Assembly (NCBI GenBank): GCA_002788855.1
Contig: PFSB01000006.1
Location: forward strand, 99,292-163,291
Origin: Candidatus Roizmanbacteria bacterium CG_4_9_14_0_2_um_filter_38_17
GTDB lineage: Bacteria > Patescibacteriota > Microgenomatia > GCA-00278855
Direction: 5' to 3'
Length of the DNA: 64,000 bases
The position numbers and the translations under genes were made by a program. How positions within the stretch are numbered: position 1 is the first letter of the stretch; each line of letters starts with the position of its first letter. Below, in pieces: positions 429 through 35,344 of this stretch. The notes beneath the pieces were generated by a model, which did no database searches, was not told the DNA's origin, and saw nothing but the letters and a program-made list of their open reading frames with translations.

Positions 429-1067
429 ATGAGTATTAAGCAGGTACTAGTGAAGTTAGGTGATAAGCCTTATTATTTGGCGATAGAGCGGGAACTGGAG
501 GGAATAGAAACTGTACTTGATCTGGGCTGTGGCGCAGACTCACCGCTGTCAGAGGTTGCTGGAAATTATACATCTGTTGGAGTAGATTTATTTACGAAAA
601 GCATAGAAATAAGTAAGCTCAAGAAAATACATGATAAATATATCCAATGTGATGTGACCAAAATTAATGAGAAGGTTAAACCAAAGTCGTTTGATGTGGT
701 TATAGCGTTGGATTTGATTGAGCATCTTGATAAAAAAGAGGGAATAAAATTACTTGAGAAAGTAGAAAAAATTGCGACAAAAAAAGTTATTATAATGACA
801 CCTAATGGCTATTATGATCAAGAACCATACGGAGGAAACCCTTACCAAGTTCACAGATCTGGCTGGAGTGTTGATGATTTTCAAAAACGAGGTTACAATG
901 TTAAGGGAATCAGAGGGTTAAGATATTTACGTGGTGAATGTGCAACTTTAAAATACAGACCTTGGTTTTTTTGGGGAGTAGTTGCAAGTATTACACAGTT
1001 ATTTTTATATAACTTTCCTAAGTTTTCATATCAGCTTTTTGCAGTAAAAAGTATTAATAATTCATGA
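429..1067 (+). CDS. Class I SAM-dependent methyltransferase
   Basis: Motif [13 protein letters not shown] and acidic motif II ([11 protein letters not shown]) typical of Methyltransf_11/12 fold; ATGA overlap with next gene. Confidence 0.7.
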
Positions 1068-2113
1068 CAAAAAAAGCATTAATAACTGGTTCGGCGGGTC
1101 TTATTGGTTCTGAAGCAGTGCGATTTTTCAGTAGAAAGAATTATGAAATCTTTGGTATTGATAACGATATGAGGGCTTATTTTTTTGGTAAGGAAGCGAG
1201 TACCGATTGGAATAGAAAAAAGCTTGAAGAAAGCCATCTAAACTATAAGCATCTGAGTATAGACATCAGAGATGAAAAAAAGATAGAGAAGGTATTTAGA
1301 CAGAATAAGTTTGACGTTGTTATACATACTGCCGCTCAGCCATCACATGATTGGGCAGCTAAGGAGCCTCTGACAGATTTTACGATAAATGCTAATGGGA
1401 CATTGATTTTGCTTGAAAATTTTCGCAAATATGCTCCTGACGGTGTCTTTATTTTCACGTCAACGAATAAAGTATATGGTGACCGTCCAAATTCACTTCC
1501 TTTTGTAGAATTAGAAACTCGTTATGAGTTGCCTAAAGATCATAGGTTTTATCAAGGAATAGATGAATCAATGAGTATAGACAATTCTGTACATAGTATC
1601 TTTGGTGCATCCAAGATTGCCGCGGATATTTTGGTTCAGGAATATGGTAAATATTTTGGTCTCAATACGGCTATCTTTAGAGGTGGATGTTTAACTGGTC
1701 CTGCTCATAGTGGTACTCAGTTGCATGGGTTTTTAGCTTACTTAGTTAAATGTATTGCAATCGGGTTAGAATATAAAATATTTGGGTATAAAGGGAAACA
1801 GGTGCGAGACAATATCCATTCATATGACTTGGTAAATGCTTTTTATCATGTTGTTCAAAACCCTCGAAAAGGAGAAGTGTATAATATGGGCGGATCTAGG
1901 CACTCAAATGTTTCCATGTTAGAGGCTATAGAGAAAATAGAAAAACGGCTAGGTAAAAAGGCTAAAGTTGTTTATATCGATGAAAATAGGATAGGAGATC
2001 ATATTTGGTATGTTTCAGATGTATCAAAATTTCAAAAGCATTATCCTAAGTGGGAATATAAATATGGAATTGACAGAATAATTGAAGAGCTATGTAACGT
2101 TTATAAGAAATGA
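1064..2113 (+). CDS. NAD-dependent sugar epimerase/dehydratase (extended SDR; CDP-paratose/UDP-hexose epimerase-like)
   Basis: N-terminal Rossmann [13 protein letters not shown], catalytic YGASK (YxxxK) motif, about 350 aa. Confidence 0.75.
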
Positions 2114-3177
2114 AGTATAAGAAAGTATTGATCACTGGGGGTGCGGGATTTGTAGGCTCTAACATTTGTCTTGCTCTTAAGAAAGAGTATGCAGGTATTC
2201 ATATTCTAGCCTTGGATAATTTGAGGAGGAGAGGATCAGAATTAAATGTGGGGCGTCTAGCGGATGCTGGAGTTGATTTTATACGAGGGGATGTACGAAA
2301 CCAGGAAGACTTGTCAGGAATAGATCCAGATCTGATTATTGAGTGTTCAGCAGAACCTTCTGCACAGGCTGGAGTGACATCAAGTCCAAGCTATGTTTTG
2401 TCAACAAATTTGATTGGTGCAATTAATTGTTATGAAGTAGCAAGGAAATGCTCAAGTGATGTCATATTTATATCTACAAGTAGAGTATATCCATATAGTG
2501 TTCTTGAAAATATAAAATATGAAGAGACTGAGTCAAGATATAAAATCCCTGAGAATATAGAAATGGCAGGTGTGTCTGTAGACGGTATTAGTGAGAAATT
2601 TCCTCTTCCAGGAAAAAGGACTTTTTATGGTGCTAGTAAGTTATCTGCTGAGCTTATTCTTGAAGAATATAGGGAGGTATATGGTGTAAATGCATCCATT
2701 ATTCGCTATGGAATGATAGCTGGTCCATGGCAGTTTGGCAAGGTTGATCAGGGAATAGTTGCACATTGGTTAGCTAAGCACAGTTTTGGTGGAGAACTAT
2801 CTTATATCGGATATGGTGGACTAGGCAAACAGGTTAGAGATATTGTGCACGTTGATGATGTTGTTGTCTTATTAAGATATCAGCTGGAACATCCAGCTGT
2901 ACTTACAAGTAAAATATATAATGCTGGAGGCGGAGTTGAAAACAGTATTTCTTTGTTAGAGTTAACTGATTATTGTCAGGAAGTTACAGGTAATACAATT
3001 AAAATTGGAAAGAATGACAAAGCAAGACTTGGCGATATTCCGCTATATTACACAGATAATTCAGAAATAACTAAGACTACGGGTTGGAAGCCAAATAAAT
3101 CCATACAAAACATTATCGAGGATACATATAAGTGGCTTATTAGTTACAAACAGCAACTTGTTGGGTTGGTAGGATGA
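2110..3177 (+). CDS. NAD-dependent sugar epimerase/dehydratase (extended SDR), paralog of previous gene
   Basis: [13 protein letters not shown] Rossmann motif, YGASK catalytic motif; translationally coupled (ATGA) to neighbours. Confidence 0.75.
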
Positions 3178-6100
3178 AGTGGTTAAAGGGTCGTAAGCAA
3201 GATATTTTAGGGCTCGCTATTCTCATTGCTATAAGCATGATTCCTTTAATTTGGGTTAGTGGCGGTTATTTGCTAGATGGGCACGATAATGTATTTCCTC
3301 TTGTGCCTCAAGTATTTTTACACGGTAGGTTATTTACATGGATATCAAATGAAGGTTTTGGACTTGATCAAACGCGCTTCATGGGAACAATACCTATGCA
3401 TTTGCTGGAGGCATTACCAGCGATGCTTGGATTTTCGATTACCGTTGCACAAAGATTTACATATATTTTTTGGATGTTGGCAATGTCACTATCGATGTAC
3501 TTATTTGTTCGAAGAACAGGTCTTGGAAATTGGGTTGTAGCAACAATAGCAGCAGTATTATATGTGATTAATTTTTATATATTACAAGCTTGGTTTATTG
3601 CTGAGGTAGCTAAATTTTCAGCGTACACAGCTTTACCTTTGCTTCTGCTGGTATTTTATGAGGTCTATCGTAAGCGGTTATCTATATTGACCGGATCGTT
3701 ACTAAATGGCTTAATCTTGTTTATATTTAATGCTGGTGGCTTGTTTGGCATTCCATTGTATGGAGGTTTAATTACCACTATTGTCGTATTTGTGCTTTTC
3801 TTCTCGCTGCATGATTGCCTTAAAGGTTCACTATCTACAGCTTTTCGGTTTTTGCTATTAATTTTAGGAACTTTAATTTTGGCTGTTTTGGCAAATATGT
3901 ATATGTTGTTGCCTGTGTTTTTTGAGCTTTCAAAGGCTGTAATTGACGGTGTTGCTAGTGTGGGCGGTGTGGAAGGGTTAATTGAGTGGGCGGGTGTTAT
4001 AAGCAAGAATACAAGCTATAATAACTTATTTAGATTGCAGGGTGTTTCGGAGTGGTATGACAATGCTCAGCATTCTTATGCTTCTAACTATTTAATGACT
4101 CCAGTGCTAATATTGGCAAGTTTTGTTCCGCTCGTAATTTTGATTCTACCCTTATATACATGGAAAACATGGTCTATAGCAAAAAAACACAGACCTTTTG
4201 TATTGTACCTCTATTGGTTATTCATTATTGGTTTTGTTCTGTCGGCCGGTACACATGCGCCATTGGGTTTTGTGTACAAGGCTATGATGAGATATATACC
4301 AGGTTTTTTGATATTTCGTACCCCGTATTATAAATTTGCACCTACAATATTCTTTTCGTTTTCCATTATTGCTGGAATTACAATTGGTTTTTTTATAGAC
4401 AGATTTAAACCTAAAATGCATTTAATTATGACTGTGGCCGTTGTGAGTTTGGTAGTTCTTTATCATTTTCCGTTTGTACAAACGAAACAATTTAATTGGA
4501 GAGATGACTTGCGTACTAGGCTCAAGGTGCCTGAATATGTGTTTGATTTTGCTGATTATATAAATAGAGCTGACACTGGGGATAACAGAGTGTTGGCTAT
4601 TCCTAATTTAAGCAGCTCAACCCAAGCGGATGTTTATAACTGGGGATTTTTTAGTCTATATCCTTTAACAAGGTACTTTACTAATAAGCCGGTGATAATG
4701 AACGACCAGCTACTTGATCGGCAGTCTCGCACAATAATAAATGAAATATATCGTAGTTTACTTATTGGAGACAAGCAATATTTTGAGCAATTAGCTAGGT
4801 TAGCAAGCATTAAATACCTGCTTGTGCGTAATGATTTTAATTATAAATTGGAATGGTCGAGATCGATTAGTCCGGATGAATATGAAGCCCAGATAAAAAG
4901 TTTTTATCCTAATATAACCAGTCTAACATTTGGTGAATGGACACTGTATACCATGCCCGTCAATTATTCTAATGGTGTTGTTTCAGTTTATAAGCCAATT
5001 GAAGTGATTAGTTCGGATATTACTAATCTACATAATTTACTGGGTACTCCTTATAGATATTCGCTTAACTCGATAATAGCTGATAGTGTTACGCAGGACA
5101 TGTATAAAGAAGCTAGTTATAGCTCATTTCTTAATTGTCGACTGTGTGAGGTTGAGAGAAATATCATGCATGTAGATTTTACTGCTTCACGGATTTTACC
5201 GAACTCTCCTCTTTTTAAGATAATTCAGTATAGAGAAAATAAGCAAATTAGCTCTGTTGTTGGTGTAGATAAAATAACCACACTTTTGGGAATAAGTAAT
5301 AAAAGAGTAGCCAGATTAATAAAGATGTATGAGCTTGATGTCAAAGATGAACAGGTACTTACCAAGACAATGGATGATATTATTAGTCAGACCGATATTT
5401 TGATTGCTGAGATAGAAAAGATAGAAAATACTGAGGAAAAACTAACGTTAGCTATAAAAGCATCAATGTATATAGATAAAGAACTTCAATATTTAAGAAA
5501 TCAGTTTAAGAATGAAGCTATACAAAGGGCAAGTAGTAGCATGAAGAGTAGATACTTGATGTTACTTCAAGAGTTTCAACAAGATCTATTAAATATTGAA
5601 AGTTATAAATTTGGAGGAAACATTGAAAAGGACAAGTTATTTATATTTCAAGTACCGCGTTCAGGACTTTATGGTTTTAGCTTAAAATATGATTCTAATT
5701 TAGGTAAAGTAGGTACCACTGTCGAATTGGTTATAGATAAAAGTGAATCTTTATTGGTAGAGATAAATAATGATTCTTGGATAGATATGGGTGATCTACC
5801 CTTAGACAAGGGCGAACATAGGTTAGAGATTAGGATAAATAATGAAGATATTGATATTTTAAAATGGGCAGAGACAGATTCAAGCCTTTATCCAGACAAA
5901 AGTTGCTATGGGGCAAAATTAGTCAATGATGATCCAATTGGTTTTGGTTCATTTAAAATGAGGTTTAAGAATCCTATCGCACAAGGTGAGGAATATATTT
6001 TCTATGAAATAAACGATGCAATAGAAGGTGGCGTGACTAATCTTAGTACTTTTGAGTATCAAGAAGATGTATCTGACACAACTGAAGATCTTCGATTTTA

Positions 6101-6584
6101 TGACGTTGAAGCAATGGGAAAAAGAGAATTTGTTTTTTGTGGCAACACACAAGAAGATAGCCTATCTATTCTTCCTCACACAACGCAAATATATTTTCCA
6201 GTTGTATATATGCGAGAGTTGGACCAACAGGTTATAGTGCATAAACTAGTTGTTGATTACACAAAAATTAATCCAACTCATTACAATGTGAATGTTATAG
6301 GTGATAATGGAGATGTAACAGTAGTTACATTAAATGAAAGATTTGACCCAGATTGGGAGCTCTTAATAACGGATGGTAGTGGTGAGACTAGCAAGGTGCA
6401 GAACCACTTTGAATCTGATTATTATGCTAATAGTTGGTTGATTCAGAAAGATGGAGATTATAAACTAGAGGTAAGGCACGCTAGTCAGCGAAGATTTACT
6501 GTAAGTGCAGTTATCAGTTTATTTTTTGCGGTTAGCTCTGGTGCATATATTTGTTACAAAAAATTTGTTAAAAAGAATGATTAA
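3174..6584 (+). CDS. Giant polytopic membrane protein, YfhO-like GT-C glycosyltransferase candidate (1136 aa) with large extracytoplasmic C-terminal domain and C-terminal TM anchor
   Basis: About 13 hydrophobic helices in first 450 aa, LLDGHDNVFPL loop near N-terminus, long beta-rich soluble domain, final TM helix (VISLFFAVSSGAYICY) as in YfhO-family proteins. Confidence 0.45.
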   Translation: MKWLKGRKQDILGLAILIAISMIPLIWVSGGYLLDGHDNVFPLVPQVFLHGRLFTWISNEGFGLDQTRFMGTIPMHLLEALPAMLGFSITVAQRFTYIFWMLAMSLSMYLFVRRTGLGNWVVATIAAVLYVINFYILQAWFIAEVAKFSAYTALPLLLLVFYEVYRKRLSILTGSLLNGLILFIFNAGGLFGIPLYGGLITTIVVFVLFFSLHDCLKGSLSTAFRFLLLILGTLILAVLANMYMLLPVFFELSKAVIDGVASVGGVEGLIEWAGVISKNTSYNNLFRLQGVSEWYDNAQHSYASNYLMTPVLILASFVPLVILILPLYTWKTWSIAKKHRPFVLYLYWLFIIGFVLSAGTHAPLGFVYKAMMRYIPGFLIFRTPYYKFAPTIFFSFSIIAGITIGFFIDRFKPKMHLIMTVAVVSLVVLYHFPFVQTKQFNWRDDLRTRLKVPEYVFDFADYINRADTGDNRVLAIPNLSSSTQADVYNWGFFSLYPLTRYFTNKPVIMNDQLLDRQSRTIINEIYRSLLIGDKQYFEQLARLASIKYLLVRNDFNYKLEWSRSISPDEYEAQIKSFYPNITSLTFGEWTLYTMPVNYSNGVVSVYKPIEVISSDITNLHNLLGTPYRYSLNSIIADSVTQDMYKEASYSSFLNCRLCEVERNIMHVDFTASRILPNSPLFKIIQYRENKQISSVVGVDKITTLLGISNKRVARLIKMYELDVKDEQVLTKTMDDIISQTDILIAEIEKIENTEEKLTLAIKASMYIDKELQYLRNQFKNEAIQRASSSMKSRYLMLLQEFQQDLLNIESYKFGGNIEKDKLFIFQVPRSGLYGFSLKYDSNLGKVGTTVELVIDKSESLLVEINNDSWIDMGDLPLDKGEHRLEIRINNEDIDILKWAETDSSLYPDKSCYGAKLVNDDPIGFGSFKMRFKNPIAQGEEYIFYEINDAIEGGVTNLSTFEYQEDVSDTTEDLRFYDVEAMGKREFVFCGNTQEDSLSILPHTTQIYFPVVYMRELDQQVIVHKLVVDYTKINPTHYNVNVIGDNGDVTVVTLNERFDPDWELLITDGSGETSKVQNHFESDYYANSWLIQKDGDYKLEVRHASQRRFTVSAVISLFFAVSSGAYICYKKFVKKND

Positions 6585-7065
6585 AAACCTTATAAATCGG
6601 GTATCTGAAGCTAGTACAAAGATGGATCTTAAATTTGGTTATACATTGATGATTGTGCTAGTAGTCATAGCAGTTTTGAGCAAAGTTCCTTATGCAAATT
6701 TATTCATAAAAATAGATATTATGACTATGATTCCATTGGTTATATTGGGTGTGTTTTTTCGTTTATTAGTTGGAGCGAGTCTGTGGTTAATAATACCAGT
6801 GCTTTTTCTACTTATACTAATTAGCAGTATTTCTGAGGCAGTGATTACATATACTTCATTTATATATGGACTATATTTAATTATTATTTCTCTTCTAAGC
6901 GTTACATATATGCTGTATTTATTAATCTTTTTTTCTGCTCTATTGCTAATAGATACAGTATTTGGAGTTGGTTTTTCAGAAATATTAGGTGTTTTTTTAT
7001 ATATATCTTTGGTAGGAGTTATTGTGAAATATAGCTATCAAGAGATGATTCAATCTAATAAATAG
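6577..7065 (+). CDS. Small polytopic membrane protein (hypothetical)
   Basis: Highly hydrophobic 160-aa product; start placed at MIKNL to avoid 80-nt overlap of track ORF 6505 with upstream gene. Confidence 0.35.
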   Translation: MIKNLINRVSEASTKMDLKFGYTLMIVLVVIAVLSKVPYANLFIKIDIMTMIPLVILGVFFRLLVGASLWLIIPVLFLLILISSISEAVITYTSFIYGLYLIIISLLSVTYMLYLLIFFSALLLIDTVFGVGFSEILGVFLYISLVGVIVKYSYQEMIQSNK

Positions 7066-8513
7066 TGTTGCTTAATAAGTTGAAATTAGGTTTAGTTTTG
7101 GTTGTTGTTTTTGCTGTGTATAGAGTTTGGTTTCGATTGGGAACTTTATCTGCTGGGGATTGGCCTTATCTGTATTTAGAAAATATTGGAGAATTTTCAT
7201 GGTTTCCAGAAATTAGATTTTTGTGGCTTGGATTATATTATCAGATTCCAGCTAAACTTTTTGTGCAAGTACTGGGATTATCATGGGAAGTGGTTGAGAG
7301 GGTTATATGGTTTGTACCTTTTGTACTGCTTTGTGTCTATTCAAGTTATCGTTTAACTAAATCATGGTTGGGGGTATTGGTTTATACAACCAGCACATAT
7401 ATATTAATGGTGGTTGGAGGGGGACAGATGGGGGTAGCTTTTGGATATGCACTGGCGCCTTTGGTGTTGGATTGGTTTGTAAGAGGTAGGAAAGGGTTAT
7501 TAGGAGGGTTATTTGTTTCTTTACAGTTAATGTTTGATCCTCGAATGGCATATATAACTTTGTTTGGGGTGGTTTTGTATTATCTAGTAACAGACTGGAA
7601 AAAAGTGAGGCTCATTATTATTCCTTTGATTATTGCATTTATTTTGAATCTATTTTGGATAGTTCCTATAATTATGTCTGGTACGGGGGAATATGGAGAT
7701 ATATACACAGGTGGAGAAATGGTAGAGTTTTTTAGTTTTGCAAAGTTTGAAAATGCAATTTCACTTTTTCATCCAAATTGGCCTGACAATATATTTGGAA
7801 AAGTGGGATTCCAAAGGCCTGAGTTTATGTTGCTGCCAATTTTGGCATTTTCCAGTCTTTTGTTCTCAAAAAAGCCTAAAATATTATTTTTTGCTTTACT
7901 AGGGTTAGTTGGTTCATTTTTGGCTAAAGGTGCAAATGAACCCTTTGGTATGGTCTATTTGTGGCTATTTGAACATGTTCCTGGATTTGTGATGTTTAGA
8001 GATCCTACTAAATGGTATCTATTAATTGCTTTAAGCTACTCTGTCCTTATTCCATATGTGCTTAATAGTTTCAAGGTTAAATGGGTTGTGTGGTTATTTA
8101 TTGTTTATTGGGTAATTTTAATAAGACCAGTTTGGCTAGGTCAGCTTACGGGTACATTTGAGCCAAAGGCGGTGCCAGGTGAGTATATTGAATTAAAGGA
8201 TTTTATTTATGAGCAAGATGGTGATTTTAAAACACTATGGATTCCTGGTAGGCAGAGATTTGGATTTGTATCCAAGAATCATCCGGCAATTGAAGCTTCA
8301 TCGTCAGCTGAGCTTTCTAGAAGTGAACTTCTAAATAAAAAGGTTAAGTATATTATTGTTCCTTACGATAATCGCGAGGAACTGTTTATTGAGGATCATA
8401 AGTATGTTCCAGCTCTTAGAGCTGAACTCATAGAGGAGCTTGGGCAGTTATCGTGGCTTGAGCATAGCCAAATAGAGAATATAGATATATTTGAAATTAA
8501 AGCAGATAAATAA
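7065..8513 (+). CDS. Polytopic membrane protein, possible GT-C family glycosyltransferase
   Basis: 482 aa, at least 10 predicted TM helices, aromatic-rich loops; embedded between other GT-C genes. Confidence 0.4.
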   Translation: MLLNKLKLGLVLVVVFAVYRVWFRLGTLSAGDWPYLYLENIGEFSWFPEIRFLWLGLYYQIPAKLFVQVLGLSWEVVERVIWFVPFVLLCVYSSYRLTKSWLGVLVYTTSTYILMVVGGGQMGVAFGYALAPLVLDWFVRGRKGLLGGLFVSLQLMFDPRMAYITLFGVVLYYLVTDWKKVRLIIIPLIIAFILNLFWIVPIIMSGTGEYGDIYTGGEMVEFFSFAKFENAISLFHPNWPDNIFGKVGFQRPEFMLLPILAFSSLLFSKKPKILFFALLGLVGSFLAKGANEPFGMVYLWLFEHVPGFVMFRDPTKWYLLIALSYSVLIPYVLNSFKVKWVVWLFIVYWVILIRPVWLGQLTGTFEPKAVPGEYIELKDFIYEQDGDFKTLWIPGRQRFGFVSKNHPAIEASSSAELSRSELLNKKVKYIIVPYDNREELFIEDHKYVPALRAELIEELGQLSWLEHSQIENIDIFEIKADK

Positions 8514-9826
8514 TGTTTAAGATAAGGGCTAAAATATTAGTGGTAGCAGTTATCCTATCTTTAGGGTTAGGCTTTATCTTACATAACTATGCAAAGTATC
8601 CACAAAGAGGTGCTAGTGCTGATGAGTACACCTATTCATTTCTAGGTTTGAGTCTGATTAAAGACGGTGTTCCAACGTCATGGTCTCATTTTTCGGCATA
8701 CAAGAACAAGTACTCATTAACGATTAATAATGCCTACTTTCCAGTAGTATATCCATATTTTGATCATCCACCGCTTAATGGACTCTTAGTGGCATCAGTG
8801 GCACTTTTAAATGGTGAGCGGGAGTTTTATCAGATTAATCTTTCTACAATTCGTTTAGCACCCATATTTTTATTTATGGTTACTTCAACGCTAGTATTTT
8901 TAATAGGCAAAAAACTATATGGCTATAAGACTGGGTTATGGGCTCTCTTAATAAATATAACTACTACTATTATTGTAATGAATGCGCGTGTGGCATTTGC
9001 TGAGAATCTTTTAACTCCATTATTTCTACTAGCTTTGTACTTATATATACTATTTAAGGACAAACTTCGTGTACCAATCGTATTATTATTGGGTACTCTC
9101 TCGGGTCTTGCTATCTGGACTAAAGAGCTAGGGGTAATAGTCTTTATATCCTTGCTGTATCTTTTTATTGAAAGAAAGCAAAGCTTAAGATTGACGCTTC
9201 TACTAGTATCAACGACCCTCCTATTTGGATTTGGTTATGTATTATATGGTGCTTACTTTGACTGGGGATTGTTTAAGGAGATAATATTCATTCAATCTAC
9301 TAGAAATATAGGTCCTGATAATCTCCTGATACTTCTGTTTAAACCAATTATTGTCAATAAGGAGTATTATGATGGGTGGTACTTCTTGGGCTTACTAAGT
9401 ATATTTACAGCTTTAATTAAATATACAAAACATAAAATAATTATTGTTCCTGCTATGACATACTTTCTATTACTTATAGTTAGTGCTTCACAAGATATTA
9501 TATCTGGCTGGTATATGATACCCTTGTTTCCTTTAATGTCTATATTAACTGCGGCGCTATTGGTTGAGAGTCAGCGCAAGTTTAATTGGTATCCATTAGC
9601 GATGTTACTGTTTGTAGGGTTGTCACAGATGAAGTTAATATTTGAGCCTAATTTTGGATTGGCTCCTTCTCAATTTAGACTGTTCATGGTGATTATGTTT
9701 TTACCAGTTATTGGAGCGATGATGCTACAAAATAAGCGTGTTTATAGCTATTTAGTTAGTATCTGGTTTTATTTATTCATCCTGGGAAATGTTTATTTGA
9801 CATATAATTATGTACACCCAGCTTAA
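8513..9826 (+). CDS. ArnT/PMT-like (PMT_2, GT39/GT83-type) polyprenol-phosphate-sugar dependent glycosyltransferase
   Basis: N-terminal TM then loop with acidic ADEYTY motif and downstream HPPLNGLL motif resembling the DE...KPPL signature of ArnT/PMT_2 family; polytopic. Confidence 0.5.
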   Translation: MFKIRAKILVVAVILSLGLGFILHNYAKYPQRGASADEYTYSFLGLSLIKDGVPTSWSHFSAYKNKYSLTINNAYFPVVYPYFDHPPLNGLLVASVALLNGEREFYQINLSTIRLAPIFLFMVTSTLVFLIGKKLYGYKTGLWALLINITTTIIVMNARVAFAENLLTPLFLLALYLYILFKDKLRVPIVLLLGTLSGLAIWTKELGVIVFISLLYLFIERKQSLRLTLLLVSTTLLFGFGYVLYGAYFDWGLFKEIIFIQSTRNIGPDNLLILLFKPIIVNKEYYDGWYFLGLLSIFTALIKYTKHKIIIVPAMTYFLLLIVSASQDIISGWYMIPLFPLMSILTAALLVESQRKFNWYPLAMLLFVGLSQMKLIFEPNFGLAPSQFRLFMVIMFLPVIGAMMLQNKRVYSYLVSIWFYLFILGNVYLTYNYVHPA

Positions 9827-10196: not shown

Positions 10197-10484
10197 ATGC
10201 AGAGATCTGATTTATATAACAATACAAAAGATATTTTTTCTCATTATGGGGTTAAGAAAGCAGCAGTTTTTGGCTCGTATGCTCGTGGTGATAATAGAGA
10301 TGATAGTGATATTGACATTCTTGTTGAATTAGGTAGATCTATGGGTTTAATTGATTATTCTGGATTAAGGCTGGATTTACAGGATAGACTAGGGATGAAA
10401 GTAGATCTAGTTCAGTATAAAACAATAAAACCATCAATAAAGGAGTATATCTTAAAAGACGAAACTGTATTATTTCAAGCGTGA
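10197..10484 (+). CDS. Minimal nucleotidyltransferase (MNT) antitoxin of HEPN/MNT type II TA pair
   Basis: GSYARGD...DSDIDILV motif (GS-x9-Dx D Pol-beta NTase signature), 95 aa, 4-nt overlap with downstream HEPN gene. Confidence 0.75.
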   Translation: MQRSDLYNNTKDIFSHYGVKKAAVFGSYARGDNRDDSDIDILVELGRSMGLIDYSGLRLDLQDRLGMKVDLVQYKTIKPSIKEYILKDETVLFQA

Positions 10485-10807
10485 TGAAAATAGCTACTCC
10501 ATACATTGAGAATATTTTAGATTCAATTGTTCAGATTGAAAAATATTTAACTGAAATTAAATATGATAAAAAGTCTTTTCTAGAGAATATTGAAAAGCAA
10601 GATGCTGTTATTAGACGACTAGAAGTTATAGGTGAAGCTACAAAGAGACTAGAAGAAGATTATAAAAGCCAGTTTCCTAATGTTCCCTGGAAGAATATGG
10701 CAGGGATGAGAGATGTCCTAATTCACGACTATGACGAGGTGGATATTGACTTGGTTTGGGATACTGTAAGTAAAGATTTGGTTGTGCTCAAGGAAGCTAT
10801 TAAATAA
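10481..10807 (+). CDS. HEPN-domain toxin (HepT/DUF86 family)
   Basis: R-x4-H motif (RDVLIHDY) near C-terminus, 108 aa, coupled to MNT gene. Confidence 0.75.
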   Translation: MMKIATPYIENILDSIVQIEKYLTEIKYDKKSFLENIEKQDAVIRRLEVIGEATKRLEEDYKSQFPNVPWKNMAGMRDVLIHDYDEVDIDLVWDTVSKDLVVLKEAIK

Positions 10808-11546: not shown

Positions 11547-11822
11547 ATGACAATAACAATACCCATAACACAAGCAAGGGAAGAATTGACGAGCCTTGTG
11601 GATAATGTCAAGAGGAAGCTAGATGAGTATGTAATTACAGTTAATGGAACCCCTGCGGCGGTTGTGATATCTTCGGCAGAGTACGAATCTTGGAAAGAAA
11701 CAAATGAAATTCTATCTGATTTGGAACTTACAAAAGCTATAAAGAAGGGTGAGAAAGATGTAGATAAAGGACGGATTTATTCTCTTGAACAGCTGAGAAA
11801 AGAATTGAAACTTGTTTTTTAA
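11547..11822 (+). CDS. Phd/YefM-family antitoxin
   Basis: 91 aa, N-terminal ITQAREELTSLVDNV...VNGTPAAVVISSAEYESWKET typical Phd/YefM fold; immediately upstream of RelE-like gene. Confidence 0.75.
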   Translation: MTITIPITQAREELTSLVDNVKRKLDEYVITVNGTPAAVVISSAEYESWKETNEILSDLELTKAIKKGEKDVDKGRIYSLEQLRKELKLVF

Positions 11823-11827
11823 GTAAG

Positions 11828-12079
11828 ATGTATAGAATACTTATTACTTCTCAAGCTAGAAAAGAACTCAAAAAGATTAAAAAGAAATACCAGCAAGCAA
11901 TAGTAGAAATACTTGTTGAGCTTCAAGAAAATCCCAGATCAGGCAAGCCCCTAACGCGAGAGTTGACTGGAAAATTTTCTTATAAGGTAGGAGTATATAG
12001 AATAATATATACAATTAATGACCTAGATAAGACAATCCATATTCTAACAGCGGGTCATCGTTCTAGTGTATATAAATAG
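11828..12079 (+). CDS. RelE/ParE-family toxin (type II)
   Basis: 83 aa, basic N-terminus, C-terminal ...YRIIYTINDLDKTIHILTAGHRS consistent with RelE/ParE. Confidence 0.75.
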   Translation: MYRILITSQARKELKKIKKKYQQAIVEILVELQENPRSGKPLTRELTGKFSYKVGVYRIIYTINDLDKTIHILTAGHRSSVYK

Positions 12080-13470: not shown

Positions 13471-15096
13471 TTAATACTTTACTTTATCTGTAACGTCTAT
13501 AAAATCATAAGGATGTTCAAGGTCAGATGTTATATAGTTGTTATCAGGTAATAATTCCAGATTAGTGTTGAAATATTGATTAAAAATTACTCTAAAAGAG
13601 TTAACTGGAGATATGCTGGGATACAGTATCTCTTGCATGTTCATATTGGGTAGATAATAGGCATTTAGGATACGCATTTTAACTCTAAGTGCGTTATCAC
13701 TGAGCGTTCTCCAATCCATATCTTCACCGCAGTGACCCCAGCCATCGTCTTCTGCTAATTCTGGAATAATGCCACAGGGGCCTTCGTCTGACTGAACAAT
13801 AATGATTGGTTCAGATTCTGAATTAAGCAGAATGTTATCTACAATATCTTGGATAACTTTGTTGGTATAGATTAATTGATCCAGATAACTGTCTGAATCA
13901 CTTTGGCTATTTACATCACTTTCAGTTATATGGTTACCTTCCCTGTCATAAATATATGGTCCATGGGGAAGTAGCATATGGACAAACACAAACTTAGGAC
14001 CAGACTTTGTTTTAGTGATCTGCTCTAACCTCTTAACTTTAGCTGGAATCCTTAACTTCTGCTCAACCCGAAGATAGTTTTCTTCACCGAATTCAACAGC
14101 CTGCATTTTGGCAAGCACTGGTAAGGCTAGTGTGGTCTGCAAGAACTCTCTGGAGAACTGATCAAGCCCTAGAAAGCTCCAACTATATACTTCGTCTGCT
14201 AGAGTATTGTCAGCTGTAGGAAACCACCACGACCCAAGGTGATAATAGGTATATCCTAGTTCCTTCAGTGCTAGTCCAACTTGATGTTTATTCAGCATAC
14301 TGTTAATGAGTGTTTGGTCCTCCGACTCTTTCCCATATTGATCGGTAAGATGGTTAAGATAGGTCATGTTTAATGAAGAAGCGAGTGACTGGAATGTTTT
14401 AGGGTAATTTGCAACACTTTTATCTGTGACATAAAAGCCTGCGTTATTTAGGTAGTTAGTAAACTCTGCGTTATCATAATCTAGTTCTGATAGTAGAGTA
14501 GAGTTGGCAGCGTAGCGGTCGAAGATGAGGTAGTATATGTCTGGTTTAACAGCGCTTCTTAAAATCCCAAAGCTAGCTTTGGGATTGGAAGCTTGATTGG
14601 CATTAGAGCTTGGTTTGTGGGAGATAATGGTGAAGGCAGATGAAAGTAGGAGAACAATGCTCATTATAAAAAATAGCTGATTAAATTTCTCGACAAAGGT
14701 CCCACCTTTCACTTTGTGAAAGGAACGACCAAGTCTCGCATTTTGTATACCTAAGCTTATGAGAAATAACTCTGATACAAAAAGAAGCTTATCTGGGCCA
14801 ACTTTTAATATTCCAAGATCTATATTAAATTCTGGTGGAAATAGCTGTACCAAATGTCCGTGGGTAAAAAAGATTAAAATAAATATACTTGCAATAAAGG
14901 CTGTTTTAGCCTTGTTTCGGATAACCATTATTAATATTAATGTAGTGGAAACGGTTGCTAAAACTGAATATGCTAGGGGTTTATATACCATATTAATTGG
15001 AGTCTCTGCTATATTGTGGGCATAGAGAAAAAGAACTGAATATATAGCGAAAATGACAGGGTTGAGTAGTACTAATTTTTTTGACATAGATATCAT
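13471..15096 (-). CDS. Membrane-anchored sulfatase/alkaline-phosphatase-superfamily transferase (LtaS/EptA-like)
   Basis: About 5 N-terminal TM helices then PDIYYLIFDRYAAN matching the PNIvlIvlDslRaD metal-binding motif of sulfatase-like domains. Confidence 0.45.
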   Translation of the reverse strand: MISMSKKLVLLNPVIFAIYSVLFLYAHNIAETPINMVYKPLAYSVLATVSTTLILIMVIRNKAKTAFIASIFILIFFTHGHLVQLFPPEFNIDLGILKVGPDKLLFVSELFLISLGIQNARLGRSFHKVKGGTFVEKFNQLFFIMSIVLLLSSAFTIISHKPSSNANQASNPKASFGILRSAVKPDIYYLIFDRYAANSTLLSELDYDNAEFTNYLNNAGFYVTDKSVANYPKTFQSLASSLNMTYLNHLTDQYGKESEDQTLINSMLNKHQVGLALKELGYTYYHLGSWWFPTADNTLADEVYSWSFLGLDQFSREFLQTTLALPVLAKMQAVEFGEENYLRVEQKLRIPAKVKRLEQITKTKSGPKFVFVHMLLPHGPYIYDREGNHITESDVNSQSDSDSYLDQLIYTNKVIQDIVDNILLNSESEPIIIVQSDEGPCGIIPELAEDDGWGHCGEDMDWRTLSDNALRVKMRILNAYYLPNMNMQEILYPSISPVNSFRVIFNQYFNTNLELLPDNNYITSDLEHPYDFIDVTDKVKY

Positions 15097-22800: not shown

Positions 22801-22918
22801 ATTTAGACTTGCTGATACTGCGGGTAATTCATATGTATTTATCTTTCGCGATGGAAAAATAGAATTGGTTAAGCATGAAATAGTGAAATTTGAAAAAGAG
22901 TTTGTTATTGTTGAATGA
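19832..22918 (+). CDS. Fusion membrane protein: Wzy_C (O-antigen ligase/polymerase)-like domain, Gly-rich linker, and C-terminal ArnT/PMT-like GT-C domain with soluble tail (1028 aa)
   Basis: GSGFSTISLATDNDYYRMLGETGILGT matches Wzy_C H-N-x-Y-L-x4-E-x-G-x-x-G motif; GLPGGGGSGGGGNSAGSG linker; second domain with TGDDFTWL and YRPLQKLLY (DE...KPPL-like) motifs and about 12 TM helices. Confidence 0.5.
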   Translation: MMKKWLNWLDDNILKVVVVFLIAFIPLYPKFPLLDLKNTWVYIRWDDIVIALSSLIFGIQVLRWKVTLKTPLTKPIALYWIAGLLTTIYALFFILGSLPHVFPNLSVLHYLRRIEYMVVFFIAFNSIKSKSDVKLYLITLCLTVFAIIIYAVGQRFAGFPAVITMNEEFAKGKLLYLPPTARITATFAGHYDLAAYMVLVIPVILAAIFSVKRISLKIGLTLLSTFSYIVLLFTESRVSIAAYFLAVSSTMIFMRKKLLLIPILIISFVLMNNLSGSSERLYKTFRIRDVAFNMETGQPIAAVEDIDKETGIAIAESQEVTKERLPVGSGFIGLPGGGGSGGGGNSAGSGLLSRYEPSERIEVRQLTYKTYATQELAATGGAKLATVSGRFLIRKALVYDISFTTRFQGEWPRAMDAFRRNPILGSGFSTISLATDNDYYRMLGETGILGTLTFLGVFFAAGVVIMRSYKKVDHKLSRNFALGIAGGIIGLAFNALLIDVFEASKIAYTLWILMGLGLGALVVSYKGKFNYLKELIRLIISKPVLIVGLLTIGLVSFLPFLKNYFTGDDFTWLRWAAEDGFEDSLAYFLYADGFFYRPLQKLLYLVMFNVFWLQPMGYHFVSLVVHLTATVGVYLLSDQLIKNRRLALVPAFIFLFLASNSESIFWASSLGNMLAVMTMVWSTYLYSQARLHNKIFLGVLVFVLNIIAMLAYEGGITAPLLLVLWELIYGSRKIWRLIPNLLLMPAYVVARYFASAHGLAGDYNYNWLKLPVNVVGNALAYLVMFVTGPRWAGDWFNSLRYLLNSEVKTMIAVTVLVAMSGLIFITVMIRRRQYVPKLLLFGIGYSIIALMPFLGLGNVSIRYSYLAAPGFAIVYIYVLKMAYDQLRKVNFLLAIIVTSFIFIATLSFNYRQLGESNRDWVQAGEIVQNTLLSLKNKYFPFASKGRFYFVDRPIRYGTAWVFPVGLADAFWHSWQDPRLEIHEVSSIGEGFRLADTAGNSYVFIFRDGKIELVKHEIVKFEKEFVIVE

Positions 22919-24327
22919 AATACAGGATAGCGCTGCTAATAATTCTAATTTTGGCGGTGGTATTGAGATTACGCGGAATAAATAGTCCGGTTGCAGACTG
23001 GCACTCTTGGCGTCAGGCAGATACCGCAGCTGTAGCGCGAAACTTTGAGAAGTTTGGAGTCGATGTTCTTCATCCTCGTTATGATGATTTGTCTAATATA
23101 TCCTCTGGTCTGGACAATCCGATGGGTTGGAGAATGGTGGAGTTTCCTATCTACCAGTTTGTAGCAGTTGGCTTAAAACAAGCGTTTGGTGTATGGTCAA
23201 TTGAGGTATGGCTCAGATTAATAAGTATATCTTTCTCAACTGGATCTGTACTGCTGATTTATCTTCTTGGGGTCCATGTGGTAAATAAACGAGTAGGACT
23301 GATGTCTGCATTAGGCTACGGAGTTTTTCCGTACTCTGTATATTATGGTAGAGTAATTTTACCTGAAGCAACAGCGGTCTTCTTAGCATTGCTATCTATT
23401 TACCTTTTAATTCGTGTGAAGAGTAACTTAGTAGCAGTGATTTCATCTGGGGTTGTTGGAGCACTTGTGCTACTGGTTAAGCCAACAGCTGCTTTTATCA
23501 TGTTGCCGATGATATATTTTGCTTGGGTTAGATTTAAAGGTATTAGGGGTATCTTTTCAATTTGGCCATATCTTTTGGCTATCTTAATGTTTGTTCCATT
23601 TATCTGGTGGAGAAACTGGATAGCTTCATATCCCGAAGGTATTCCCGCGAACATGTGGTTATTAAATGGTGATGGAATCCGATTAAAAGGTGCGTGGTTT
23701 TACTGGTTATTCGGAGAGCGAATAGCTAAATTAATACTTGGATACTGGGGAGTTGTTCCTCTAGCAATGGGAGTTTTGTGGATGCTAACTAATTCAAAAC
23801 TAAAGCCATTGCTCTGGTTTGTAGTGGGGGCTGGAATATATCTGGTTGTATTCGCAACAGGTAATGTTAAGCACGACTATTATCAAGTGATGATATTGCC
23901 TGCTCTTTTCTTTGCTGTGGCTGTAGGTATTGAGTATCTTATAAAAGATAAAAAAACCTATGTCGAGCGATTTGTTTCTTACGCTTTTGTAATAGTTATT
24001 ATGGGATTGTCAGTAGTTCTTTCTTGGCACGAAATTCGGACATATTACTGGATTAATAATATGAAAATGGTTGAGGTGGGTAAAGTGGTTGATAATTTAT
24101 TGCCCAGCGATGCAAAAGTCATAGCACCGTACGGTGGAGATACGGCTTTTTTGTATCAGACTAATCGCGCGGGTTGGCCAATAGGGTTTGAAATAGAAGA
24201 TAAAATAGAAAAAGGGGCAACTGCCTATGTTTCAATTGATCCATTAGATATAGAGCCTAGAACGCTTGCTGAAAAATATACAGTTGTTGAAGAAGGGGAA
24301 GGGTATATTATTATTTCGCTAAAATGA
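22915..24327 (+). CDS. ArnT/PMT-like GT-C glycosyltransferase
   Basis: N-terminal TM followed by loop ADWHSWRQADTAAVARNF (acidic/Arg loop as in PMT_2), about 11 TM helices, C-terminal soluble tail. Confidence 0.5.
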   Translation: MKYRIALLIILILAVVLRLRGINSPVADWHSWRQADTAAVARNFEKFGVDVLHPRYDDLSNISSGLDNPMGWRMVEFPIYQFVAVGLKQAFGVWSIEVWLRLISISFSTGSVLLIYLLGVHVVNKRVGLMSALGYGVFPYSVYYGRVILPEATAVFLALLSIYLLIRVKSNLVAVISSGVVGALVLLVKPTAAFIMLPMIYFAWVRFKGIRGIFSIWPYLLAILMFVPFIWWRNWIASYPEGIPANMWLLNGDGIRLKGAWFYWLFGERIAKLILGYWGVVPLAMGVLWMLTNSKLKPLLWFVVGAGIYLVVFATGNVKHDYYQVMILPALFFAVAVGIEYLIKDKKTYVERFVSYAFVIVIMGLSVVLSWHEIRTYYWINNMKMVEVGKVVDNLLPSDAKVIAPYGGDTAFLYQTNRAGWPIGFEIEDKIEKGATAYVSIDPLDIEPRTLAEKYTVVEEGEGYIIISLK

Positions 24328-29613: not shown

Positions 29614-30249
29614 ATGTATCCCAAACTTAAACGCGTTTTTGATCTTGTTTGTACAACAATTTTAATGATTGTTTTTTTGCCCATTGCTTTGTTTACGGCA
29701 ATTGCTATTAAATTGGATACAAAGGGTCCAGTCTTTGCAGATACCCCAGAGCGAGTAGGAAAAAATGGTGTACCTTTTAAGATGTATAAATTTCGTTCAA
29801 TGATTATGGATGCTCATAATTTACTTAGAAAAGACCCCAAGTTGAGAGTATTATACGAGCAGTATAAAAAGAATAGTTACAAGTTGGTTGAAGATCCACG
29901 TGTAACAGTAGTGGGTAAGTTTATTCGTAAACATTCTGTTGACGAGCTTCCACAGCTAATCAATGTGATTCGTGGTGAGATGAGCTTAGTTGGTCCCAGA
30001 GCTTATTATCCTGACGAACTAAAGGATCAGCAAAAAAAATATCCACATACACAAAAATCTGTGCAGAAGGTACTTTCTATCAAACCAGGAATCACTGGTA
30101 TCTGGCAGGTATCAGGTAGGTCTGAGGTGAACTTTGATAAACGAATTGCTATGGATGCAAAGTATGCAAGTAAACGATCATTGTTGTATGATATTTCTAT
30201 TCTTCTTAAAACACCTTGGGCCATGATTGGTGGAAAAGGAGCGGTGTAA
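29614..30249 (+). CDS. Small initiating phosphoglycosyltransferase (bacterial sugar transferase, WbaP/WcaJ C-terminal-domain type)
   Basis: One N-terminal [10 protein letters not shown] and [21 protein letters not shown] motifs. Confidence 0.8.
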
Positions 30250-30251
30250 AT

Positions 30252-32219
30252 ATGGATTTTAAAAAAATAGAAATAAATAACCAACCAGAAGCTCAAGTTG
30301 AGACTAAAGGTTCAAGCAGAAGGAGACTTAAGGTGGGCTTTCCCAAGCTTAAATTCAGTAAAAAAACTGGAATAATCTTGACAGCTCTACTAGGAATTCC
30401 GCTTATATTACTAATTGTTTTGGGTGTAGTCGTGGGTATTCCAGCTCGCCAAATTTATGCAGATGCTAAAGTAGCTAAGGATCAACTTCAGGTAACCAAT
30501 GCAGCTATAAAAAAGCAAAATCTCAAAGATGCTAAAGAAAGCTTAAAAGACTCCAAAGACAAACTTACAGTTCTTAATGCTTCTGTTAGTAAGCTTAACT
30601 GGTTTGGATCCCTACCAGTTGTTGGTGCCTACCAAAAAGATTTGAAAAGTTTGGTGACAGCGGGGATAGCAGCTGTTGAGGGAGGTCAAATTGCGGTAGA
30701 TGCGATTGAGCCATATGCAGATTTATTAGGCTTAGAGGAAGGGACCTCATTTGTAAATAAATCTACCGAAGATCGCTTGCAAACAGCTGTGACGACAATA
30801 GGTAAACTGAGCCCAGCGTTAGATGAGATTGCAGGAAAATTGACTATTGTAAGAGATGAAATTGGGAGCATTGATCCAGCTAGATATCCAGAAAAGTACA
30901 AAGACCAGGAGGTAAGAGTTAAGATTGTAGACGCTAAGGCTCAAGTTAACGATCTAGCAGATCTGTTTATTGACGCGAAGCCATTTTTAACCGCGCTACC
31001 TGATCTAATGGGGGCAGACGAAGCAAAAACATATCTTTTCCTTTTTCAGAATGACAAAGAACTACGTCCAACGGGTGGCTTTATTACAGCCTATGCATAC
31101 TTCCGGATGCACAAGGGTAAAATTGAGGTAATTCGCTCAGATGATATCTACAATCTAGATAATGCTAGACGAAAGAAAGTTGCCGCTCCTGAAGAGCTAT
31201 TAAAATATCATAAAGAGGTCTATGAGCTAACCTTAAGAGACAGTAATTTATCTCCAGATTTTAGGGAATCAATGTTGTTATTTGAGGAGTTATATAGTGA
31301 TGTTTCGGGTAATTTGGAGATAGATGGAATCTTTGCTTTAGATACGCATATGTTGGCAGAGTCGATGAAAATTCTTGGTCCGATAAATGCATATGGTACA
31401 ACTTTTACAACTGAACCCGATGATCGTTGCGGTGGCTGTCCGCAAGTGGTGTATGAACTGGAGGAATATGCGGACAAACGAGTCGGCTATATACGAGAAA
31501 ATAGAAAAGATATTATTGGAGTATTAATGTCCCAAATTATGCAAAAAGCGTTAGGAGTATCTCCTGGTCAGTACTGGGGTCGATTGTTCCAGATGACACT
31601 TGACGAAGTTGGGCAGAAGCATTTTATTGCATATTTCCATGATAAAGACGCTCAAGCAGGAGCAGAGGCACTTAACTTTGCTGGCAGGATAAAGGATTTT
31701 GATGGAGATTACTTGCATGTTAATGATACTAACTTTGCTGGAGCAAAATCTAATATGTTTACAAATCATACGGTTGAACAAGAAATAGATATTGCTAAGG
31801 ATGGGACAGTTACAAAGACTTTAACCTTAAGTTATAAAAATACAGAACCAGGTTCTCCTGGTTGTAACTTAGAGCGCGGAGGCCTTTGTTTGAATGGATT
31901 GCTTAGAAACTGGGTACGTATTTACACACCAGAAGGATCCCAGCTTCTGGACTTTAAAGGTTCAGAGACCGATCCAGTGGAGAAGAATGAATTAGGAAAG
32001 ACGGTTTTTGAAGGATTCTTTACAGTGCGACCTGAGGGACAAGCGCAGCTAAAAGTTTCGTATAAGTTGCCGTTTAAGGTGAGCTCTACTGAGGACTATA
32101 ATATGTTAATTCAAAAACAAGCTGGTACAGAAGGTCATAAATATATTATTAAACTGAATGGTAAAATGGTTGAAGAGTTTGATCTTATTACAGATAAAGA
32201 ACTTCAACTCACCCTCTAG
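30252..32219 (+). CDS. Membrane-anchored extracytoplasmic protein, DUF4012-like
   Basis: Single N-terminal TM (GIILTALLGIPLILLIVLGVVVGI), coiled-coil region, conserved-looking RPTGGFITAYAYF segment; start set to ATG 30252. Confidence 0.4.
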   Translation: MDFKKIEINNQPEAQVETKGSSRRRLKVGFPKLKFSKKTGIILTALLGIPLILLIVLGVVVGIPARQIYADAKVAKDQLQVTNAAIKKQNLKDAKESLKDSKDKLTVLNASVSKLNWFGSLPVVGAYQKDLKSLVTAGIAAVEGGQIAVDAIEPYADLLGLEEGTSFVNKSTEDRLQTAVTTIGKLSPALDEIAGKLTIVRDEIGSIDPARYPEKYKDQEVRVKIVDAKAQVNDLADLFIDAKPFLTALPDLMGADEAKTYLFLFQNDKELRPTGGFITAYAYFRMHKGKIEVIRSDDIYNLDNARRKKVAAPEELLKYHKEVYELTLRDSNLSPDFRESMLLFEELYSDVSGNLEIDGIFALDTHMLAESMKILGPINAYGTTFTTEPDDRCGGCPQVVYELEEYADKRVGYIRENRKDIIGVLMSQIMQKALGVSPGQYWGRLFQMTLDEVGQKHFIAYFHDKDAQAGAEALNFAGRIKDFDGDYLHVNDTNFAGAKSNMFTNHTVEQEIDIAKDGTVTKTLTLSYKNTEPGSPGCNLERGGLCLNGLLRNWVRIYTPEGSQLLDFKGSETDPVEKNELGKTVFEGFFTVRPEGQAQLKVSYKLPFKVSSTEDYNMLIQKQAGTEGHKYIIKLNGKMVEEFDLITDKELQLTL

Positions 32220-34618: not shown

Positions 34619-34643
34619 CATATAAAGATCCGATCTTTATATA
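34619..34643. repeat. REP-A palindrome (CATATAAAGATC-C-GATCTTTATATG), inverted orientation
   Basis: Perfect 12-bp arms around single C. Confidence 0.75.
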
Positions 34644-35344
34644 TGATATTATTAGTTTGTATGAGACTAGTCAATTTTGTGAATGGTCAGGTTTATCACA
34701 TATATAACAGAGGTGTTCGCAAGGATTTACTTTTTTATAGAGATTCTGACTATGTGAGGTGGGAAAATCTTTTATCCTGGTGTTCTAACTATAGCTATCC
34801 ATTTAGTAGTTATGTTCAAGGGCTAAAATCGCTTAGTAAGGAGAAGGCTAGTCTTGATGCCTATCAAGAACGTATAGAAAAAGAATATCGTTACAGTCGG
34901 CCTCTTGTTAATATTCTTTGCTATATTGAGATGCCTAATCATTTTCACTTAGTTCTCGAGCAAAACGTTGAATCAGGCATTTCTTTGTTTATGCAAAAGC
35001 TGTCCATTGCGTATGCAATGTATCTTAATAGTAAATATGAGCTATCTGGGTCAGCTTTTCAAGGTAAATATAAGTTTGTACACGTAGAAACAGATGCTCA
35101 GCTAGTTCAGCTGTTAAAGTATATGTTACTTAATCCCGTAGTTGCACTCATAGTTTCAATTTTAAATCTAAAAAAATATAAATGGTCAGCACTTAAAGAG
35201 TATTTGGGAAATACTGACAAGATGATAGTCGACACAACCAAGTTGCCTAGTGTGTTTATAAACCCACAGGAGTTATTAAATTTTCTTAAAGAGGAGTCAG
35301 GCTCTGGATTTACAGCGGAACTTGGTTCACTAGTTATAGACTAA
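34643..35344 (+). mobile_element. REP-associated tyrosine transposase (RAYT; IS200-like Y1/HuH transposase) copy 1
   Basis: HuH motif MPNHFHLVL, C-terminal KYMLLNPV (variant of RAYT Y-x-H-x-N-P motif, His replaced by Leu); flanked by inverted REP-A hairpins; probable true start MRLVNF at 34661. Confidence 0.7.

Follow-up and report, generated by a model that had tools for sequence, protein, structure and literature searches.

An AftD-superfamily GT-C protein of Microgenomates-type Patescibacteria encoded upstream of a short MmpA-like paralogue

AftD (arabinofuranosyltransferase D), a mycobacterial cell-wall enzyme and the closest described relative of the protein treated here, comprises eleven transmembrane (TM) helices (TM1-11), a soluble GT-C domain, three carbohydrate-binding modules (CBMs) plus a single beta-sandwich, a further helix (TM12) and a separate bundle, TM13-16, that binds acyl carrier protein (ACP); its residues K39, D41, E251, K361 and D474 are essential, and the corynebacterial protein has about 1070 aa (bioRxiv 10.1101/2019.12.22.885152). 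A shorter protein, MmpA (~474 aa), is homologous to the N-terminal ~668 residues of AftD, is encoded nine genes from aftD and was suggested to anchor a complex in the membrane (PMC8698533). According to two 2026 preprints, aftD, tmaT, mmpA, mtrP and other genes form a conserved locus, TmaT and AftD form a complex and AftD catalysis is required; Foldseek hints of MmpA being a glycosyltransferase are mentioned as well. Here, we describe a 1136-aa membrane protein, called the giant in the following, encoded in a stretch of 64,000 nucleotides (the window; contig PFSB01000006.1, positions 99,292 to 163,291) from the uncultured and ultra-small Candidatus Roizmanbacteria bacterium CG_4_9_14_0_2_um_filter_38_17. 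The open reading frame (ORF), with an ATG start on the forward strand, was found where the original prediction, made from the sequence letters, had reported a YfhO-like GT-C glycosyltransferase. An exact-sequence look-up revealed identity to PIP61931.1 and NCN58624.1, each a "hypothetical protein" of Candidatus Roizmanbacteria / Microgenomates. According to our analysis, the giant belongs to the AftD superfamily as a distant relative of AftD and not as its orthologue, since a residue-by-residue comparison showed mixed conservation and the TM13-16 bundle is absent. With a probability of roughly 70%, we consider it a GT-C glycosyltransferase of this superfamily that elongates a surface glycan outside the membrane of Microgenomates-type Patescibacteria.

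A chance origin of the ORF can be dismissed because it has 1136 codons in DNA of 35% GC and relatives at E=1e-176, and its start is credible, as the alignments of the relatives span residues ~1 to ~1126. A search of 5.8 billion proteins yielded 77 relatives, mostly full length with about 1100 aa and 25-33% identical to the giant, and 41 sequences were aligned. Named relatives include Levybacteria, Gottesmanbacteria and Patescibacteria, and one is called "alpha-(1->3)-arabinofuranosyltransferase family protein" by the NCBI annotation pipeline (PGAP). When 1.84 billion cluster representatives were searched exhaustively with a profile, 13,323 matched at E<=0.001, and 2,878 did so at E<=1e-30. Since the best 150 of the 13,323 matching representatives nearly all have 1000-1200 aa, a length of about 1100 aa is normal in this family, and the giant, originally thought to be much longer than typical YfhO (about 850 aa), is not unusual among its own kind.

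The link to AftD emerged from the family as a whole. The Pfam family GT-C_AftD (PF11847, formerly DUF3367; gathering score 26 bits) was matched by 22 of the 41 relatives at E<=0.01, with the model spanning residues ~36-600 of the relatives, that is, the entire GT-C region. When seven relatives were scanned individually, five lay above 26 bits (P0001 31.4, P0057 31.1, P0059 45.1, P0064 27.0, P0077 28.8), while P0002 stayed below with 24.6. Compared with the Protein Data Bank (PDB), the family profile had AftD of M. abscessus as its sole match (E=3e-10). Three stretches match in colinear order, one in the TM1-5 region, one in the soluble GT-C domain and one comprising the last beta-sandwich with its TM helix. 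Both fold searches with the structural model also single out AftD, at an identity of ~10-14%, and the polytopic N-terminal domain matches the fold of solved GT-C enzymes. Similarity to a GT-C family, on which the original prediction depended, was thus found both in the profile match and in the fold.

YfhO belongs to the GT-C superfamily as well. A YfhO-family enzyme that takes sugars from undecaprenyl-phosphate to decorate teichoic acids and has gained a C-terminal module would have the same general topology (polytopic N-terminus, acidic first loop, outside domain and C-terminal TM helix), and a monoderm-type envelope is plausible for Patescibacteria. However, no Pfam YfhO match was obtained with the giant at E<=1 or with the 41 members at E<=0.01, more than half of which match GT-C_AftD, and the PDB profile search, the fold searches and the NCBI name of one relative all lead to AftD, so that we regard this origin as extremely unlikely. 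From "YfhO-like GT-C", only the superfamily assignment is therefore kept; "YfhO-like" would be a mis-annotation, for which "AftD-like GT-C family protein, sugar specificity unknown" would be a defensible replacement. In architecture, the giant is an uncharacterised variant, which Pfam and PGAP recognise in part already. Among the top-ranked papers of our literature search, none joined DUF3367/AftD with Patescibacteria, which is not proof of absence.

Hydropathy and AlphaFold helices revealed 11 TM helices within residues 8-435, a hydrophilic domain of 669 aa (436-1104) and one C-terminal TM helix with its hydrophobic core at 1108-1126, as evidence for the polytopic N-terminal domain and the single C-terminal anchor that had been predicted. 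With the N-terminus inside, Lys and Arg make up 18 of 54 residues (33%) in the putative cytoplasmic loops versus 8 of 147 (5%) in the short outside loops. Conserved cysteines are confined to two pairs in the large domain, C655/C658 (39 of 41 sequences) and C911/C989 (36 of 41). This charge bias, together with the limitation of the Cys pairs to that domain, places the 669 aa outside the cell at the level of prediction, and not in the cytoplasm, in line with the original view. The cysteines, encoded at window positions 5136-5147 (C655/C658), 5904-5906 (C911) and 6138-6140 (C989), may form disulfides or a metal site. Residues 1-440 are the most conserved part of the giant (mean column majority 0.55). 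The "LLDGHDNV" loop pointed out earlier was located at residues 33-40 directly after TM1; in the alignment, D38 is invariant and G36 and H37 are at least 90% conserved. D38 is the putative catalytic or metal-binding Asp.

An AlphaFold2 model built with the 41-sequence alignment (mean pLDDT 84, pTM 0.81) resolved the outside domain into different modules. Its predicted size of roughly 650 aa was about right, but it is not beta-rich throughout: an alpha/beta part (441-660) and a helical part (681-809) precede the beta-sandwiches, which are restricted to 820-1102. In the alpha/beta domain, P453, P477, W490 and D554 are invariant and C655-x-x-C658 is conserved. The helical bundle of ~130 aa gave a partial Pfam DUF5667 match in eight of the 41 relatives, and no AftD counterpart was identified for it. 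Residues 812-1020 are variable and modelled at lower confidence, whereas residues 1021-1102 are conserved (W1061, N1086, W1088) and share homology with the final beta-sandwich of AftD. In the model, the beta-sandwiches resemble CBM6/CBM35 carbohydrate-binding modules in fold, which agrees with the earlier suggestion of a carbohydrate-binding module. These modules argue for a glycan acceptor and thereby against a protein glycosyltransferase, oligosaccharyltransferase- or PMT-like, acting on S-layer, pilin or other surface proteins. As the glycan-acting AftD and AftA also score higher in the fold search, and colinear sequence matches past the TM core were obtained to AftD only, we consider an action on proteins unlikely.

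Several points weigh against an AftD-type glycosyltransferase. Used alone, the giant reaches no Pfam or NCBIfam threshold, these scans returning only noise (Taxilin, MreC, PRK06423), has no GT-C_AftD match at E<=1 and found nothing in a single-sequence search of the PDB. D38 lies in the same first loop as K39 and D41 of AftD, but its equivalence to D41 comes from an ungapped, low-scoring alignment with a register off by one or two residues: the hidden Markov model alignment pairs D38 with K39, the distance from Asp to Pro deviates by one residue, no Lys equivalent is present (G36/H37 instead), and the N-terminal sub-profile matches AftD weakly (E=0.02), which leaves the D38/D41 register ambiguous. 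At the position of D474, AftD "WGLTRD(474)EPL" aligns with "WGFFSL(495)YPL", and a hydrophobic residue is the family consensus. No positions could be assigned to E251 and K361, since the sub-profile of the best-conserved core (236-445) had no AftD match at E<=10 and, in the PDB, chance matches only (leukotriene C4 synthase, GPCRs); R287, R382 and K387 are candidates for their equivalents. The CBM likeness is at the level of fold, at 5-20% identity, with residues 918-996 modelled at low confidence. Finally, neither a dedicated synthase for polyprenyl-phosphate sugars nor a flippase could be identified in the locus, its nearby GT2 genes being generic.

The same comparison bears on whether the giant is a true functional orthologue of AftD, that is, an arabinofuranosyltransferase using decaprenyl-phospho-arabinose (DPA). 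AftD is the closest family and the closest structure, and PGAP names a relative accordingly. Against this stand the low identity, the missing ACP-binding bundle and the loss of D474, and, of the genes scanned within the window's first 35 kb, none was of the UbiA type or the DprE1/2 type (DPA pathway). To our knowledge, arabinogalactan and lipoarabinomannan are confined to Mycobacteriales. Orthology in function is therefore very unlikely, and a more distant AftD-superfamily glycosyltransferase is preferred.

The giant is part of a dense group of genes (Table 1). Its ATG overlaps the TGA of the upstream short-chain dehydrogenase/reductase (SDR) gene in an ATGA at 3174-3177, and identical 4-nt overlaps join the two SDR genes (2110-2113) as well as the methyltransferase gene and the first SDR gene (1064-1067). 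On the other side, the most plausible start of a small TM gene, ATG 6577, overlaps the stop of the giant as ATGATTAA, followed by the junctions TAGTG (7063-7067) and TAATG (8511-8515). Due to these successive overlaps, the seven genes from 429 to 9826 can be regarded as one tightly packed string, along which translational coupling may be inferred, including the proposed coupling of the giant to the two epimerase genes. Promoter and terminator scans gave counts no higher than shuffled controls, so that the operon boundaries rest on the gene overlaps.

Table 1. Position of the giant, its domains and further genes in the window
Feature	Position	Strand	Evidence
AftD-type GT-C giant, 1136 aa	3174..6584	+	ORF list and translation, ATG start
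Residues 1-440, 11-TM GT-C membrane core	3174..4493	+	Hydropathy, AlphaFold helices, charge bias, conservation
G36-H37-D38 motif, first outside loop	3279..3287	+	41-sequence alignment
Residues 441-660, alpha/beta soluble GT-C domain	4494..5153	+	Model; HMM match to AftD 439-570
Residues 681-809, helical bundle insert	5214..5600	+	Model
Residues 812-1102, beta-sandwich modules	5607..6479	+	Model (sandwiches at 820-1102)
Residues 1103-1135, C-terminal TM helix with K-rich cytoplasmic tail	6480..6578	+	Hydropathy, model, alignment to AftD TM12 region
S-adenosylmethionine (SAM) methyltransferase	429-1067	+	Pfam/NCBIfam
SDR enzyme, first of tandem pair	1064-2113	+	Pfam/NCBIfam; PDB phmmer
SDR enzyme, second of tandem pair	2110-3177	+	Pfam/NCBIfam; PDB phmmer
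Small polytopic membrane protein, 162 aa from ATG 6577	6577..7065	+	Sequence; without known family
482-aa short paralogue of GT-C core (MmpA-like)	7065..8513	+	hhalign, NCBIfam MmpA, conservation
437-aa PMT_2-family GT-C protein, final gene of string	8513..9826	+	Pfam PF13231 3.6e-10
Second giant membrane protein, 1028 aa	19832-22918	+	Without Pfam match
PMT_2 gene after second giant	22915-24327	+	

Two genes downstream, the string encodes a short paralogue of the giant, which matched the giant's family over residues 139-588 with an hhalign probability of 99.1% (E=1.5e-18). NCBIfam MmpA (NF053599) was matched at residues 255-398 with 44.1 bits (E=1.1e-11), below the equivalog cutoff of 210 bits, and 11 of 12 members of the short-paralogue family matched the same model, all weakly. 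As these scores are far below the cutoff, the short protein is homologous but not equivalent to MmpA. Its profile did not match AftD by sequence in the PDB. In the short paralogues, the first-loop Asp is 100% conserved (D32 in "G-D-W/F"), and an "FRD..K" motif parallels "FRTPYYKF" of the giant.

This arrangement is widespread. Relatives of the giant were found at 80 genome loci with 77 full-length giants, 71 of them with enough downstream sequence; all loci among the 80 with a taxon-specific name are Patescibacteria. Many third-party metagenome-assembled genomes with the giant (loci L006, L009, L014 and others) are titled "uncultured Gammaproteobacteria bacterium", probably a placeholder or a wrong taxon label. 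A short paralogue of ~480-650 aa lies downstream of the giant in at least 48 of the 71 loci and within 1 kb in at least 42; these neighbour counts, obtained with a single-sequence phmmer query, are lower bounds. In 35 of the 42 loci, the gap between the two genes, typically 255-430 bp long, contains an ORF of 60 aa or more. Nearly all of these gap ORFs (33 of 35) have three or more predicted TM segments, and most are ~105-135 aa long with a common "PY(x)N" motif, which "VPYANL" of the small TM protein in the window matches. No Pfam or NCBIfam family, GtrA included, was found for this protein; a role as a subunit or as a flippase-like partner is conceivable. At seven loci, the giants have ~890-990 aa and border directly or almost directly on the short gene, without a gap ORF. 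In two others, L027 (1383-8794) and L042 (8956-16326), the giant is tandemly duplicated, with two copies of ~1170 aa followed by a single short paralogue.

The conserved trio suggests a complex, and MmpA has been proposed as a membrane anchor (PMC8698533) while AftD forms a functional complex with TmaT; adding that D474 is not conserved, the giant might be a mainly non-catalytic scaffold or regulator of envelope assembly. The invariant first-loop Asp and the many invariant outside-loop residues in both the long and the short protein argue against it, as does the lack of a TmaT-type acyltransferase among the genes scanned in the first 35 kb, and we hold a scaffold to be quite improbable. Returning to a catalytic giant, the trio of giant, ~4-TM protein and short GT-C may represent an ancient extracytoplasmic glycan-elaborating machine common to Patescibacteria and the aftD/mmpA locus of Mycobacteriales, an idea that is tentative and rather doubtful. 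If true, the AftD-MmpA pairing would be older than mycolic-acid envelopes, and MmpA would be, at heart, a glycosyltransferase partner of AftD and not a lipid-transport factor. The long and the short protein may then act as a hetero-complex, which could build a major, undescribed surface glycopolymer of Microgenomates-type bacteria of the candidate phyla radiation (CPR).

Upstream of the giant, both SDRs are closest to CDP-tyvelose 2-epimerase (TyvE; PDB phmmer to 9rl0/1orr, E=1e-35 to 1e-45), and the tandem suggests, as far as can be judged from sequence, an unusual C2-epimerised nucleotide sugar. A TyvE-like SDR is found directly upstream of the giant in 8 of 67 loci and a methyltransferase in 9 of 67. 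The SDR linkage is kept in the closest relatives; in Levybacteria GCA_016182235.1, for example, the entire gene order is retained at 29% identity. The NCBIfam matches of the methyltransferase are to families other than MtrP. The first ~32 kb of the window form one glycan-assembly locus, with GT1, GT2, GT4, a hexapeptide acyltransferase, further PMT_2 GT-Cs, a ManC-like nucleotidyltransferase, a Bac_transf priming transferase and DUF4012.

In this locus, a second giant membrane protein (Table 1) was ruled out as a paralogue of the first (BLASTP E>0.4, hhalign probability 1%); it has a 1044-aa counterpart at the same relative position in a Levybacteria genome (L004, 20257-23351). Two further envelope genes are uncharacterised: a sulfatase-fold membrane protein, possibly LtaS/EptA-like by a weak Pfam match (13471-15096, reverse strand), and a 667-aa DUF4012 protein adjoining the Bac_transf priming transferase (30216-32219, forward strand). 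Between glycan-locus blocks, the gene table of the identical contig (L001) lists toxin-antitoxin-like pairs, NTP_transf_2/HepT-like and PhdYeFM/ParE-like, at 10197-10807 and 11547-12079 (forward strand). An IS200-like Y1 transposase domain protein is encoded at 34643-35344 (forward strand), just past the locus, where it follows RecO and a class II aminoacyl-tRNA synthetase.

Taking these features together, the following mode of action can be proposed. By analogy with established GT-C enzymology, the giant would take a sugar from a polyprenyl-phosphate carrier in the outer leaflet of the cytoplasmic membrane and move it onto a growing surface glycan. The transfer site might lie between the alpha/beta soluble domain, the first outside loop with D38 and the two further conserved outside loops (247-302 and 361-385), while the CBM6/35-like beta-sandwiches, and possibly the helical bundle too, would hold the polymeric acceptor above the membrane. 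For the synthesis of this acceptor, the ~32-kb locus would provide its cytoplasmic GT1/GT2/GT4 enzymes and its Bac_transf priming transferase; in the giant's own lineage, the two CDP-tyvelose-2-epimerase-like SDRs probably supply the sugar. The giant probably works with the small ~4-TM protein and the short MmpA-like GT-C paralogue, either sequentially or as a hetero-complex, as in other paired GT-Cs.

Patescibacteria make up a large share of uncultured bacterial diversity, and their envelope chemistry is almost unknown. The occurrence of a large, conserved three-gene AftD-like module in big glycan loci speaks for a surface polymer that is abundant and partly assembled outside the membrane; such a polymer would be relevant to the host attachment of these epibionts. 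The mycobacterial aftD-mmpA locus is being studied actively in 2026, both as an envelope-coordination node and as a drug target. By its parallel to this locus, the Patescibacteria module offers a simpler system, free of mycolates and arabinogalactan, for the core role of a long/short GT-C pair. The parallel predicts that a catalytic first-loop Asp is retained in MmpA-type proteins. The main interest thus lies in a conserved AftD-like/MmpA-like module in CPR bacteria, linked to the mycobacterial locus by homology and synteny.

Of the other known GT-C enzymes with glycans or lipids as substrates, AftA (8IF8), AftB (9DLH) and ArnT (5F15) carry neither the long multi-module ectodomain nor the C-terminal TM anchor and show no sequence-level match to the giant. 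The YfhO family (PF09586) has the GT-C superfamily and a similar overall topology in common with it, but no sequence match in any of the 41 members, and is not closest by any measure used. With AftD (M. abscessus, PDB 6W98/6WBX/6WBY; PF11847), the giant has in common the 11-TM GT-C core with an acidic residue in the first outside loop, the alpha/beta soluble GT-C domain with its "VRND" motif (D554 in the giant), beta-sandwich/CBM-type ectodomain modules, of which the last is followed by a TM helix (TM12), and a length similar to that of corynebacterial AftD. In contrast, it ends in a tail of ~9 residues after one TM helix and lacks TM13-16 and hence the ACP-binding site, it carries the DUF5667-like helical insert, its beta modules are fewer, different and variable, and it comes from a host without known arabinogalactan and with different neighbour genes that do not include TmaT. 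Like MmpA (NCgl2761 / Rv0226c), the short protein falls in a size range of ~470-570 aa, is homologous to AftD in the N-terminal GT-C part of the latter, and is encoded close to the long gene. It differs in lying directly downstream of the long gene, with only a small TM gene between, in its low score against the MmpA model, and in a host that makes no trehalose mycolates. Judged by homology and synteny, the Patescibacteria module thus has the long-plus-short pairing of the mycobacterial aftD/mmpA locus without TmaT and without mycolates.

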